Positions 2,082-47,370 of a DNA stretch of 64,000 bases are shown in pieces. Numbering within the stretch: the first letter of the stretch is position 1; the number at the start of each line of letters is the position of its first letter. Below the pieces are notes generated by a model. That model had not been told where the DNA came from. It saw only the letters and a program-made list of their open reading frames with translations, and searched no databases. Source of the stretch: Octopus vulgaris (taxonomy: Eukaryota); assembly GCA_951406725.2 (NCBI GenBank), contig OX597837.1, positions 18,972,001 through 19,036,000 on the forward strand. The letters are read 5' to 3'. A program made the position numbers and the translations under genes.

Positions 2082-2965
2082 ATCTTACAGCTGTTTCAGC
2101 CATGCAGATATGGGTGCCTCATTATGCTCATATTAGCCATGTGTGATAGGTTAATATCATCATCATCGTTTAACGTCCGCTTTCCATGCTAGCATGGGTT
2201 GGACGGTTCAACTGGGGTCTGGGGGGCCCGAAGGCTGCACCAGGCCAGTCAGATCTGGCAGTGTTTCTACAGCTGGATGCCCTTCCTAACGCCAACCACT
2301 CCGAGAGTGTAGTGGGTGATTTTATGTGCCACCGACACAGGTGCCAGACGAGGCTGGCAAACGGCCACGCTCGGATGGTGTTTTTTATGTGCCACCGACA
2401 CAGGTGCCAGACGAGGCTGGCAGACGGCCACGCTTGGATGGTGTTTTTTATGTGCCACCGACACAGGTGCCAGACGAGGCTGGCAGACGGCCACGCTCGG
2501 ATGGTGTTTTTTATGTGCCACCGACACAGGTGCCAGACGAGGCTGGCAAACGGCCACGATCGGATGGTGTTTGTTACGTGCCCACAGCACGGAGGCCAGT
2601 CGATGCGGTACTGGCTACGGCCACATTCGGATAGTTTTCTTATGTGCCACCAGCACTGGTACCACAAAGATACAAATTCCATTGATGTTCATCTATTTTG
2701 ATTTGGTTTGATTTTGATTTTCACTTGCCTCAACAGGTCTTCACAAGTGTCACAAGAAGGAAGGTATGCACAGGTGGACTGACTACGTCCCAGGTAGGGG
2801 CCACGGGTTATGGCTTCACTAGTCTTGCCGGGTCTTCTCACGCACAGCATACTTCCATAGGTCTCGGTCTCTAGTCATTTCCATGGTGAGACCTAAAGTT
2901 CGAAGGTCCGTTATATAGTTATAAATGAGACACTTACAAAAATATCCCAAGGCCTCTTCAGAGAT
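2082..2965 (-). ncRNA. Type I hammerhead ribozyme motif with very long stem II
   Basis: Minus strand: atct-CTGAAGA-GGCC...[long insert]...GGCT-GAAA-CAGCTG-TA-agat. Palindromic stem III ACAGCTGT; GUA site. Confidence 0.6.
2156..2908 (-). mobile_element. SINE/RTE-tail-type retroposon with (ATG)n tail and an internal 60-bp tandem array (about 4 copies, 2321-2580)
   Basis: catcatcatcgtttaacgtccg... end shared with copies at ~28560-28930 (+), ~31775-32000 and ~36195-36450. The 60-nt unit ttttatgtgccaccgacacaggtgccagacgaggctggca.. explains the repeated ORFs here. Confidence 0.8.
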
Positions 2966-3659: not shown

Positions 3660-3771
3660 ATCCAAACAAGAAAACACAGAAAAAAAGAGAAAAAAACACA
3701 GCAACGCAGGACGTGGAACAATTAAAGTATTATTGACGCTCAGGAAAGAAGGGAAGGGGGGTTTATATATG

Positions 3772-4055
3772 TGGAGGCGCAATGGCCTAGTGGTTAGGGC
3801 AGCGGATTCCCGGTCGCAGGATCGCGGTTTCGAGTCCCAGACCGGGCGTTGTGAGTGTTTATTGAGCGAAAACACCTAAAAGCTCCACGAGGCTCCGGCA
3901 GGGGGTGGTCATCCCTGCTGTACTCTTTCACCACTCTTTCTTCTGTTGGCCTGCTCGCTTAGCTAGTGGGGTGACGTCATTCGAAGGCTAAAACAATGCG
4001 AACGCATTGTGACCAGCGATGTGTAACAACATCTGATGGTCTGGTCGGTCACGTG

Positions 4056-4057
<2 letters not shown>
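3772..4057 (+). mobile_element. tRNA-derived SINE, apparently full length
   Basis: A box TGGCCTAGTGGTTAGG and B box GGTTTCGAGTCCC, followed by a body ending in (TA)n. Confidence 0.8.
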
Positions 4058-4087
<30 letters not shown>

Positions 4088-4110
4088 ATATATATATATG
4101 TATGTATGTG

Positions 4111-4155
<45 letters not shown>

Positions 4156-4278
4156 GTGTGTGTGTGTGTATATATATATATGTGTGTGTGTGTGTATATA
4201 TATATATGTGTGTGTGTGTATATATATATATATGTGTGTGTGTGTATATATATATATGTGTGTGTGTGTGTATATATA

Positions 4279-4328
<50 letters not shown>
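4057..4328. repeat. Compound (TA)n/(TG)n microsatellite
   Basis: Directly visible. Confidence 0.95.
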
Positions 4329-4331
<3 letters not shown>

Positions 4332-4434
4332 TAGCTACGCCGGTACATATTCTAAATTTGGAACAATACAGAGAAGATTAGCATGGACCCTGCGCAAGGA
4401 TGATACGCAAATTCGTGAAGTGTTCCATATTATT
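4328..4434 (+). pseudogene. U6: U6 snRNA retrocopy, near full length
   Basis: ggaacaatACAGAGAAGATTAGCATGGacCCTGCGCAAGGATGAtACGCAAATTCGTGAAGtGTTCCATATTaTT matches U6, including the ACAGAGA box and AGC triad, with about 10 substitutions. Upstream is microsatellite, not a PSE/TATA promoter. Confidence 0.93.
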
Positions 4435-6825
4435 CTGGGGAGCTAAAGAAGCAGTAACTGGAAGTTCCCCTGTGCCAGTGGTCCTACAAAGGAACAGAGC
4501 CCTCACCCCATTAGAAAAACAGAAGTAAAAAGGAAGGACAGAAAACAAAAATAAAGAAGCAAAGGAAGGAAAAGGCAAAACAACCAAAACTGAAACCCCA
4601 ACCCACCAAACAAACAACAGAAAACCCTAAAGGAAAGAAGAAATCTGGAAGGCACCCAAGAACCTGTAAATTTTACCTGCAGGGCAAATTTTGGCATTGG
4701 GAGGACGGCAAAAACTGTTGGTTTGCCCATCCAACACCCCGCCAGAACTACAGGGGCCTTAAAGAGAAAAACTTTACTGAGGAAAGACAAGAAATGTCTC
4801 CCAGGAAAACATTCAGAAAAGAAGTGTGCTCCTCAGATGTTCTGCACAACGCAGCAGCTGAGCAAGAGTCTTTTTTATGCATGTCGCAAAGGATTGTCCA
4901 GCAGCTAATCTGGCTACACCAGGCACAGAGAAGGAACCTTGCCCACCACTATGCAAGACCACCACAGTCAACAGACACGGGATGGCCTCCCCTAACGCCT
5001 GCACAGTCGTCACCCCAATACTTTTACTAAATATTGGGGGCCTGTTGCATCAAAATAAAATCAAAAATTCTTTCCTGAGAGATCTTACTGCATGCAATCA
5101 AGCCCTATGCATAGCACTCATGCAAACCCACCTCAGCCCTGATATAGAGGACGCAGAAGTACATGTACCAAACTATGCCATACTGCGAACAGACAGAAAG
5201 GAAAGGAGCCATGATGGAGTTGCTGTATACATCTGTGATGACCTCACACTCAAATTCGTATGTCATACTCAAATTCGGTATGTGACACTCTAATTGTATA
5301 CATAAGACAACATAATATAGTCATATGCAATACATATTGCCCACCGGATGCCCCAAGTCACATAGGCAAGTTTGAAGACTGCCTCAGAAGAATTAAAGAA
5401 ATCCTTATGAATCTGGAACACCATGTGACCATATTTCTTATGGGTGATTTCAACTTCCTGAACATCTCATACTCTCAGGAATGACTCATTGCAAGCAAGC
5501 ACAGGTGGAGTCCCTGCTCAACCTCACCAATACCCTATTCATGGAGCAATCTGTACTCAGACCAACTAGGGCAATAACATTCTGGATCTCTGCTTCACAA
5601 ACAATATGGACATCATTCATGATGTGAAATTGACACCGACATTAGTCTCAGATCACATAATAGAGCTGTCTATGTTTGGGCCGAAAGTAACCAGAGACTA
5701 AAGGAAGCACTCGAAATCTCTCCAATCTGAACTTCCACAAAGCAGATTGGCACAAGGCCAAAAAAAAATATGAGCAAGATTCCAAAAGAGAGGAAGATCC
5801 TCATGAGACGACGGACGAAGGTTGCAAATCAACTCAACCAACATCCCAAAAGTAGCGAAATGTTCTACCTAAAAACAACACTGATAGAGATAGAAAAAAG
5901 GCTGCAACAATCCTATGTGAAGGAGAAAGCAGGCAAAGAAGCCTGGGTTATAAAAAACATTAAGTCAAACCTAAAGGCCTTCTTTCATTATGCAAAAGAA
6001 ACAGCCTCAGTACACAAGATGGCTCCCTCACAGACAGTCCAAGTAAGATCAGTGAGATACTGAATGACCAGTTAAAAAGTGTCTTTACCACCCCGTTGGA
6101 GCACAAACCAGTGAACGAACCAGTGGATTTCTTTGCCGCGTTACCTATAACCAGCGAGGCAGTTACAATGGAATACATTGACATTAGCGAAGAAGATATA
6201 CTACTAGCCATAGATGAAGTGGACACAAACTCAACTGCTGGTCCTGATGGTTTCCCAGCAATCCTCCTCAAAGCGTGGCAAAACCCCTGAAGATTCTCTT
6301 CCAGAGCTTTCTTACAAATGGCAAACTGCTAAGCAAGCTGAAGGAGGGAATAATATGCCCAATACATAAAGGAGGAAGTAGAGCAGATGCCAAAAACTAT
6401 AGGCCTATCTCTCTGACTTCACACATCAGCAAAGTCATGGAACAGATAGTCAGAGGGAAACTAATCGTATTCCTTGAAAAAAAAATAACTTGCTGAGTAA
6501 TACCCAGTATGGTTTTCGACCAGGTAGGAGCTGCCTGACCCAGCACTTACAACATTATGATTGGGTGTTGAGGCAGTTACTCAACAAATCAAATGTGGAC
6601 GTAATATACCTTGATTTTGCAAAAGCTTTTGACAAGGTGGATCATGGTATGATATGCCACAAACTGTGTGACCTTGGCACAGCTGGAAAACATAACTTCC
6701 TGAAAGATAGGAGTCAGGCAGTAGTGGCTAATGGGGCCACCTCTATGAACACACAAATAGTGAGCGGCTTTCCACAGGGCACTGAGTTGGGACCACTGCT
6801 TTTTATAGTGGCCCTCTCAGATATG
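4435..6825 (+). mobile_element. Decayed CR1-group (CR1/L2/Crack-like) LINE: ORF1 3' part, APE endonuclease and RT, 3'-truncated
   Basis: Frameshifted motifs: LLNIGGL, RTDRKERSHDGVAVY, YCPP, MGDFN (endonuclease); AGPDG, PIHKGG..KNYRPISLTS, QYGFRPGRSC, YLDFAKAFDKVDH, GFPQGTELGPLLF (RT). Ends before YADD. Confidence 0.9.
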
Positions 6826-8095
6826 TATATATATGATAAATTCAAAGTCAGTTTGGGTGAGATTTGAACTCAAAATAACACAGATACTGCCTTTTACCTT
6901 TCCTTTTATTTGGACTGTGGCCATGCCGGGACACCATCTTGAAGAGCTTTAATTGAATGAATCAAACCCAGTACTTACTTTTTCTTTATTAAAACCTGGT
7001 ACTTATGCTATCAGTCTCACCTGCCAAACTGCTACATTACAAGAATGTAAATAAACCAACATTAGTTGTCAAGTGGTGGTGGGACACACACACACAATGA
7101 GCTTCTTTCAGTTTCCTTCTGCCAAATCCACTCACAAAGCTTTGGTGGGCCTGGGGGCTATAGTAGAAGTTGCTATGCAGTGGGATTGAACCCAGAACCA
7201 TGTGGTTGGGAAGCAAGCTTCTTACCACTTAGCAACACCTGTACCTATCTACATACTGCTCCACATTTAGTCCAACACTTTACAGTTTTTGCCACTTTGC
7301 TGACTTAAATGATGGATGACTTCATGTGAATATTTGCAGTTGAGTGTGGAGTCTGCTAAAAGGGCCCAAATACTGGGTGGTGCTGAGGAAAACAAAGGAC
7401 GATGTCTACCATACAAAACAGAACCAGTTCTCTAAAATTTCCACTTAGCTTTTGTCTACAGAATTTCATTTACAAGGCTTTAGTCACCCCAAGGTACCAA
7501 TTCAGTGGGATCAAATTTGAAACCCAGAGCTTTTTTTTTAATTAAATTTCCTTACACCTACAGTTTAGGAAGCAAAGCTTCATTTTACAATGTGATGAAA
7601 GTGAGGCATCTGACATGAATAAAATCACTTCAGATTAAAAACACCCCTGACTAAAAGTGATCCAGATGTGGCTATCATATAGTTATTCTAAACATTGTAA
7701 TCTAGGACTATATCAGCCAATGCTCTCTGTTTCTAAAATTGCAGGGTGTGTCTTGACTGCTATTTCTCACTAGTCACCTTGCACATGTAAGTGAAATAAA
7801 TGGATTCTTTATTGATTTCCAATCAACTGAGCTACCAACTCGTAGTATAATAAACTGGCAGAGTATTCCACAGACATTTGTACCTTGATGTAATCCTTTG
7901 GCAGAATCTGTATGATAAAGTACGTAATAGGGTGGTTCTTTGAATTACATGCACAGTCCATCAGATGGGTTTTCATAATTTCCCTTATATGGTAAAAGGC
8001 TAAGCTAAAAGACACTACCTAATGATGCTACACAGCAGGACTTCATTTTAGCAAGTCGAACTTCTTAACTGTTTGGTGTGTGTGTGGCTATAGAC

Positions 8096-46749: not shown

Positions 46750-47370
46750 TCTTTGCTGAATCAACTCTAAGGCCCTTTGATTCCAGGCCTTGCTTCCTTA
46801 CCTGAAATTTCTTTTCTAGAGTGTTAGTGGTTCAACGATAAGAACAAGTTCATCACAGTAGAGGAGCTCTCAAGGCCAGTCTGTTTCAAATTCCTCTGTT
46901 ATAGCCTGGAGGACTGTGATAAACAAGGGTGTATTGAGAACCAATCCCTGATGGACTCCTACTTGTACACTAAGCTCCTTGCTACACTTATTGGTGACTC
47001 TCACCTTACTGACATCTCTGTACATGGCTTGTATGGTTGTCACTAACCACTCACCTATCCCTAGCTTCTGCATTCCCCACCAGATAAGGGAGTGGAGGAC
47101 CCTGTCAAAGGCTTTCTCCATGTTAACAAATGCCAAATACAGGGGTTTATTTTTGACCAAGTACTTACCTTGCAGTTTCCTCACCAAGAAAATAGCATCA
47201 GTAGTGCCTCTCTGTGGTACAAATCCAAACTGCATCTCATCTAGGCTAACTCTCTTCCTAATTCATTGAGTTATGACTCTTTCTGTAACTTCCGTCACCT
47301 GGTCCAGCAATTTGATGCCTCTTTAATTATTTCTATCTAAGTCATCGCCTCTGCATTTGTAGTAGTTACA
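46750..47370 (-). mobile_element. RTE-clade LINE RT fragment
   Basis: MQFGFVPQRGTTDAIF, AFVNMEKAFDRV, VGVHQGLVL. Confidence 0.9.

Follow-up and report, generated by a model that had tools for sequence, protein, structure and literature searches.

In Octopus vulgaris, a promoterless copy of U6 snRNA is joined through a CT linker to a 5'-truncated LINE. With a probability of about 60%, this unit arose as a one-piece insertion in which the LINE reverse transcriptase (RT) jumped to the oligo-U end of U6. The junction lies in the 64-kb window, the whole stretch of DNA analysed here, and is confirmed as real at the level of the assembled sequence. Across the genome, 130 of the 170 U6 copies read, including that of the window, are fused to a downstream partner, and all of these fusions are in sense orientation. 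The locus itself is a dead fossil for which no function is proposed.

The U6–LINE junction in the window

The Rfam model for U6 (RF00026) matches the window copy over all 105 of its positions (1-105; 97 bits, E 7e-24), which bears out a preliminary description of this DNA as holding a near-full-length U6 that ends at 4434. This is the sole Rfam match across the 64-kb window. The genome contains a tandem cluster of seven U6 genes (G000:C1:139.422-139.430 Mb), and locus L071 is a candidate gene of a second U6 type. The seven clustered genes have a common upstream block that includes a TATA-like box. In its place the window shows 270 nt of (TA)/(TG) microsatellite, and no U6 promoter was found there, as had been claimed. 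The further claim that both ends of the unit adjoin TA-rich repeats also stands, with a short TA repeat on the right. The coordinates are collected in Table 1.

The same description let the LINE follow U6 directly, with no spacer after 4434. LINE homology does extend through the downstream sequence, beginning at 4437 in 8 of 8 other copies, but CT at 4435-4436 is not LINE sequence and forms a linker of 1-2 nt. The eight copies carry TA or TG at the linker position and have a different, LINE-own sequence upstream of 4437. Among U6 chimeras, CT is the most frequent dinucleotide after the T run (25 of 100).

Table 1. Features in and around the U6–LINE unit (window positions; repeat family letters A, B, C, E, F and G were coined in this analysis)
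Feature	Position	Strand	Remarks
63-bp tandem repeat	2315-2651		4-5 units; resembles repeat F, which also lies behind U6 at six loci
SINE-like repeat, family C	3771-4056	+	motif match at 3773; TA-rich tail is the insertion host
(TA)n/(TG)n microsatellite, left flank	4056-4328		TRF; no U6 promoter inside
Full-length U6 snRNA retrocopy	4328-4434	+	Rfam; 7 differences in 105 nt from the clustered gene type; terminus TTATT
CT linker	4435-4436	+	not present in 8 other LINE copies
LINE ORF1, 3' part	4437-4876	+	Lys-rich, weak CCCH-type finger; frameshifted; lacks 5' UTR and ORF1 start
LINE ORF2 remnant	4877-6825	+	endonuclease and most of RT; frameshifts and deletions
3' break	6821-6835		ATATG is found both in LINE sequence and in a short TA repeat; about 1 kb of the element, tail included, lost
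Old SINE-B-like fragment	~6840-6900	-	reverse orientation, just past the LINE break; identified by eye
Second, distant RT fragment	46909-47349	-	30% to P0001

The LINE content read earlier from the letters alone, an ORF1 remnant followed by endonuclease and RT, is supported by alignment and by Pfam. Residue 1 of the intact ORF2 relative P0001 (1033 aa) aligns at 4877 and residue 717 at 6825, and Pfam reports Exo_endo_phos_2 (E 2e-5) and RVT_1 (E 7.5e-12). In the ORF1 frame of a relative, the CCCH zinc finger gives weak matches below the cut-off (E 0.07-0.16), and a literature search on CCCH-type ORF1 returned nothing relevant. The element is truncated at its 5' end, where long copies have at least 1.25 kb more common sequence. 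Relative to copy L122, it begins at least 1,258 nt in and lacks the final 992 nt, in agreement with the earlier remark that the 3' end is absent. These 992 nt were found neither in the window nor in the 10 kb upstream. A recurrent 3' truncation site at 6825 was rejected, as the right flank is shared by none of the other 39 top matches. Internal priming as the cause of the lost 3' end also found no support among six other LINE copies whose alignment stops early: three resume past internal deletions, and none ends in a TA repeat.

Among named RT relatives, the best is from the octopod Argonauta hians, in line with an octopod host. Relatives P0001 and P0003 contain PF14529 and PF00078 only, with no RNase H. 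An ORF1 plus an ORF2 with APE endonuclease and RT, and no RNase H, is the arrangement of CR1, and several other clades have it likewise. The window LINE, assigned to the CR1 group in the preliminary description, therefore appears to fit a CR1-type layout that is not exclusive to CR1. A C-terminal SLERRR motif is a mark of CR1. The L1 clade was ruled out by the weak match to L1 ORF2p (E 1e-23 only, over 700 aa) and by the double-hairpin tail held in common with SINE-like repeats. No clade name emerged from the names of homologues, from cluster members or from the protein atlas, and no named clade reference for the RT occurs among 120 homologue matches or 10 clusters. The available parts of PMC4758252, PMC5786205 and PMC10294476 do not name octopod elements of this type.

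U6 fusions across the genome

A 25-nt pattern from the U6 3' end has 285 exact matches in the genome, and its reversed control has none. The 170 copies read comprise the first 100 places of this pattern, the top matches to window positions 4328-4560 and two further subsets, one of which selects C or G after five T. With classes set by the analyst's motifs, partly by inspection, and SINE start sites inferred from free copies, the fused copies are joined to a LINE tail (52), SINE A (37), SINE B (21), SINE C (3), SINE E (1), repeat F (6), a SINE interior (4), tail G (2), another U6 (2), 5S (1) or a LINE body (1, the window). The other classes are 23 inverted-U6 rows, 8 genes or candidate genes, 1 copy at a TA repeat and 8 unassigned copies, of which L208 is SINE A by eye. 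Five of the 52 LINE-tail rows represent one local duplication (L041-L046), the sole shared junction. The SINE-like repeat of family C that precedes U6 in the window is also found behind U6 at L016, L021 and L035.

The first 100 places of the pattern (104 rows) were taken without regard to the partner; of the 96 copies there that are not genes, 78 run into a SINE-like 5' end, a LINE tail or another U6. No partner motif occurs in the opposite orientation in any of the 170 copies, and by chance a motif would start within 32 nt in 0.05% of cases with strict motifs and in about 0.3% with looser ones (159 free starts in 777 kb). What follows each U6 copy was proposed earlier as a check on whether chimeras form repeatedly. 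The junctions vary, indicating recurrent formation, and the suggestion that a non-L1 LINE of a mollusc-like genome produced this U6/LINE retro-chimera is supported. The long LINE-body form is one case, the window, of 170; tblastn and blastn of the downstream sequence found no other among the remaining 169 copies.

The junctions have several common properties. T runs centre on 4-6, and U6 is clearly 5'-truncated (start beyond position 30) in 32 of the 130 fused copies. Linker bases are present at 62 of 82 junctions, with C as the first base in 34, A in 27 and G in 1. Reading the C-over-G bias (34:1) in terms of non-templated purine addition was dropped, because templated trailers can explain it. 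The clustered U6 genes continue T6-CTT and one repeat family continues T5-CTG, while 5S chimeras visibly carry gene-flank trailers; the C or CT linker may likewise be templated by U6 read-through trailers. Such a linker marks the class without proving the route by which it formed.

Of 83 chimeras, 9 have direct repeats of at least 10 bp around the whole U6-plus-partner unit (null mean 1.6, max 6), and 1 has them around the partner by itself. Among U6+SINE-B units, target-site duplications (TSDs) of 9-15 bp lie exactly at both ends in 7 of the 17 with a recognisable 3' end, the 4 of 21 without a 3' end being left out (null mean 0.8, max 3). Where the tail is of the hairpin type, TSDs are absent from most chimeras. 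In the window, the LINE 3' end beside which a TSD would lie is lost.

The SINE-like heads gave no Rfam tRNA match at the gathering threshold or at E 0.05. They carry what we take to be A/B-box-like motifs, and the label "SINE" rests on these motifs, on dispersion and on common tails. At L082, L109, L201 and L223, U6+SINE chimeras lie at or near one site within SINE B copies or at their end. A further recurrent chimera type, at L016, L039 and L156, has a LINE tail attached to the 5' half of SINE C, with almost the same join point in each. Additionally, head-to-head inverted U6 pairs occur at L059, L086, L087, L095, L101, L110, L179, L196, L213 and L221, with single-arm versions at L192, L194 and L209. 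Both arms run into the same AT-rich trailer of 60-100 nt, often with a TA repeat, and several trailer families recur at unlinked loci. Such pairs may stem from two U6 read-through transcripts whose priming took place on opposite strands, or may be fold-back elements.

The LINE tail and its hairpin base

Long copies of the window LINE have at their end a double hairpin and then an A-rich run, and a 28-nt tail pattern of this LINE has 1,265 exact copies. The tail hairpins show modest folding scores (z -1.2 to -2.6). In nine U6 copies the partner is the tail of this very LINE, and the join lies 2-4 templated nt 5' of its first stem. Of the first 30 free copies of the tail, 5 consist of the tail alone and the other 25 retain between 85 nt and more than 1.4 kb of LINE. 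Tail-only joins thus make up 9 of 9 U6 copies versus 5 of 30 free copies (p 9e-6), or 9 of 10 when the window is counted (p 6e-5), which indicates that the hairpin base is the usual point at which U6 is joined to this LINE and that the window is a rare long case.

Related tails occur on other elements: the SINE A tail is related to the LINE tail, and tail 4 closes a sister LINE. At L174 and L175, tail-only LINE copies follow (TA)n and a short T run. These T runs could be the ends of extremely truncated U6 or of other oligo-U RNAs.

5S rRNA, tRNA and three-part chimeras

A full-length 5S query, with the best 40 of 1,364 candidates scored, gave 30 best loci, of which 11 lie in the gene cluster (G000:C4:35.2-35.3 Mb) and 19 are dispersed. 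All 19 dispersed copies have a partner at their 3' end in sense orientation; full length was selected by the query, orientation and partner were not. Judged by eye, the partner is one of the SINE heads or tails also seen behind U6 in 17 of the 19, repeat F in 1 and an unassigned sequence in 1. Many dispersed copies include the gene's 3' trailer, and the presence of gene trailers in chimeras implies that 5S precursors served as partners. The dispersed 5S chimeras, with their SINE heads or LINE tails and frequent gene-flank trailers, are at loci L226-L251. The copies that join 5S to a tail presumably have an internal promoter and are candidate SINE3 starts.

Some loci contain more than one join. 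L190 (323-640) reads U6, a single C, 5S (1-120) and SINE A, with 5S position 1 directly after the C; by Rfam, 5S starts 2 nt after U6. At L065 (325-560), two U6 copies precede tail G, and the first meets the second at its position 1. At L057 (1366-1570), a tRNA ending in CCA is followed by U6, CT and the 5' part of another U6 from position 1.

Origin of the junction

In the preferred reading, formation of the window unit would have begun when ORF2p primed at the TA microsatellite and copied LINE RNA from the double-hairpin tail into ORF1. At a template end or pause, the RT would then have made an end-to-end jump onto U6, with 1-2 linker bases left between the two, and continued as far as the U6 5' end. 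About 1 kb of the 3' end was probably deleted later, between the ATATG of the RT region and the flanking TA repeat; internal priming would be an alternative to this deletion. Several observations favour an end-to-end jump over ligation by RtcB: 5S and U6 can be joined at their very first base, 5S serves as acceptor, some chimeras have three parts, and linker bases are frequent. For the R2 RT, jumping is described as requiring non-templated addition (PMC8857657).

Ligation would have RtcB join a U6 with a cyclic phosphate to a cleaved LINE RNA with a 5'-OH, after which the chimera would be retrotransposed whole. The T runs of 4-6 in this genome suit it, RNA ligation would produce just such a truncation within ORF1 as the window LINE shows, and the hot spot at the tail-hairpin base could be a cleavage site. 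The route has been shown for human L1, where U6 with 4-6 T is joined to 5'-truncated L1 (PMC6789731). Three properties of the class speak against it: joins that fall on position 1 of 5S or U6 or on a SINE-like start, the use of 5S as an upstream partner like U6, and the linker bases at 62 of 82 junctions. In other eukaryotes, 5S and U6 have triphosphate or capped 5' ends and 5S ends in a 3'-OH, and the same is assumed here. If this end chemistry applies, joins at 5S +1 and U6 +1 and 5S as the upstream member fit RtcB poorly, since the enzyme requires a 5'-OH partner and a 2',3'-cyclic phosphate, and gave full-length joins to triphosphate RNA in 0 of 26 cases (PMC6789731). For the window unit alone, ligation is less likely than jumping and has a minority share of our confidence.

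Two separate events, either a U6 retrocopy that later received the LINE in its T run or a deletion that brought both together, are improbable. In their favour, no TSD is seen at the window locus, where the LINE 3' end is lost, the LINE there carries internal deletions, many free copies of the element start in AT-rich sequence, and U6 is nominally more diverged (7/105, 6.7%) than the LINE (26/708, 3.7%). That difference is not significant (Fisher p 0.18), however, and the values are compatible with one age. Moreover, the expected chance co-location of U6 and a LINE 5' end is about 0.003, assuming 5000 LINE 5' ends and 500 U6 copies; few U6 retrocopies stand alone (1 at a TA repeat and 8 unassigned among 170), and the CT linker of the window matches the class. 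An amplified U6-headed LINE or SINE family, the multicopy alternative of the preliminary description, has even less to recommend it. U6 with a 55-nt LINE tail does have the head-and-tail anatomy of a SINE, in 52 rows, but these copies vary in linker, T-run length, U6 type and U6 5' end, and share a junction only in the local duplication noted above. In a genome-wide DNA search with 4328-4560 (best 40 of 840 candidates scored), only the window spans both parts. The other 39 matches cover U6 alone or LINE alone, and a second spanning copy would score above them; the window junction is single-copy, and a U6-headed LINE family was rejected. Internal promoters are not on record for snRNAs (PMC4494074). 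No more credible is an assembly artefact joining two repeats beside a microsatellite: the context is repeat-rich, but structure and linker are typical of the class, and the join falls exactly at the U6 3' end.

Extended from the window to the class, jumping becomes a broader proposal, to which we give even odds: the LINE RTs of this octopod genome would routinely jump end-to-end, sometimes twice, from SINE 5' ends or the LINE hairpin base onto oligo-U Pol III transcripts, namely U6, 5S precursors and tRNA.

Relation to known systems

The comparisons in this section draw on the available parts of the cited papers. The novelty implied in the preliminary description was overstated, since vertebrate U6 chimeras with L2, RTE, CR1-like, Mon-1 and AnolisSINE2 partners are published (PMC4476161). 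Doucet et al. (2015, PMC4476161) describe U6-L2 and U6-Mon-1 in platypus, U6-L1, U6-L2, U6-RTEX and U6-AnolisSINE2 in anole, and one U6-CR1-like case in turkey. As in octopus, the U6 3' end is fused in sense to a non-L1 LINE or its SINE, TSDs are short or absent with L2-type partners, and platypus shows short LINE pieces and many 5'-truncated U6 copies. The hosts there are vertebrates, and the word "invertebrate" occurs 0 times in the accessible text, whereas the host here is an invertebrate. Their classes number 40 in platypus and 16 in anole, against about 130 read here of at least 285. Joins at SINE-like 5' ends, joins at the tail-hairpin base and the like behaviour of 5S are, relative to the available text of that paper, particular to octopus.

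Human U6/L1 chimeras (Moldovan et al. 2019, PMC6789731) likewise combine full-length U6 carrying 4-6 T with a sense, 5'-truncated LINE. Their junctions are spread along L1 without a motif, whereas here 9 of 10 U6 joins to the window LINE or its tail fall 2-4 nt to the 5' side of the tail hairpin, junctions often contain linker bases, and numerous partners begin at their native 5' end. The Magnaporthe WEIRD-MgSINE-MGL elements (PMC2104539) resemble the octopus class in their double jumps, hairpin-linked hot spots and non-mammalian LINE; they differ in being fungal, in having WEIRD rather than U6 or 5S as upstream RNA, and in including one tripartite case in 34. Human 5S/L1 and tRNA/L1 insertions (PMC11838501) also show that small RNAs beyond U6 make chimeric insertions, but these are mostly antisense and truncated through twin priming, whereas the dispersed 5S copies here are sense. 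Crocodilian SINEU (PMC4494074) places an snRNA head on a retroposon body, with a template switch proposed; SINEU was amplified into families, while the chimeras here are independent one-offs.

For an invertebrate animal, no report of U6 chimeras of this kind was found in the literature searched, which included few subscription papers and no Repbase. Chimeras of U6 with non-L1 LINEs are already known, and what is new here is the scale, the joins at native 5' ends, the hot spot at the hairpin base and the sense 5S partners.

Implications

Taken alone, the window locus is an ordinary dead copy of a known type, and the interest lies in the wider class of U6 and 5S fusions. Whether U6 chimeras come from template switching or RNA ligation is debated: ligation has been shown for human L1 (PMC6789731), and jumping has been called possibly non-physiological (PMC8857657). 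Hundreds of natural junctions, with ends that discriminate between both routes, make the question testable outside mammals. Additionally, the head-plus-tail chimeras show how SINEs gain LINE tails. If routine jumping is true, the octopus genome would provide genome-scale in vivo evidence for ligase-independent template jumping. It would also represent a factory of proto-SINEs, each with a small-RNA head and a LINE tail, at a stage before amplification.
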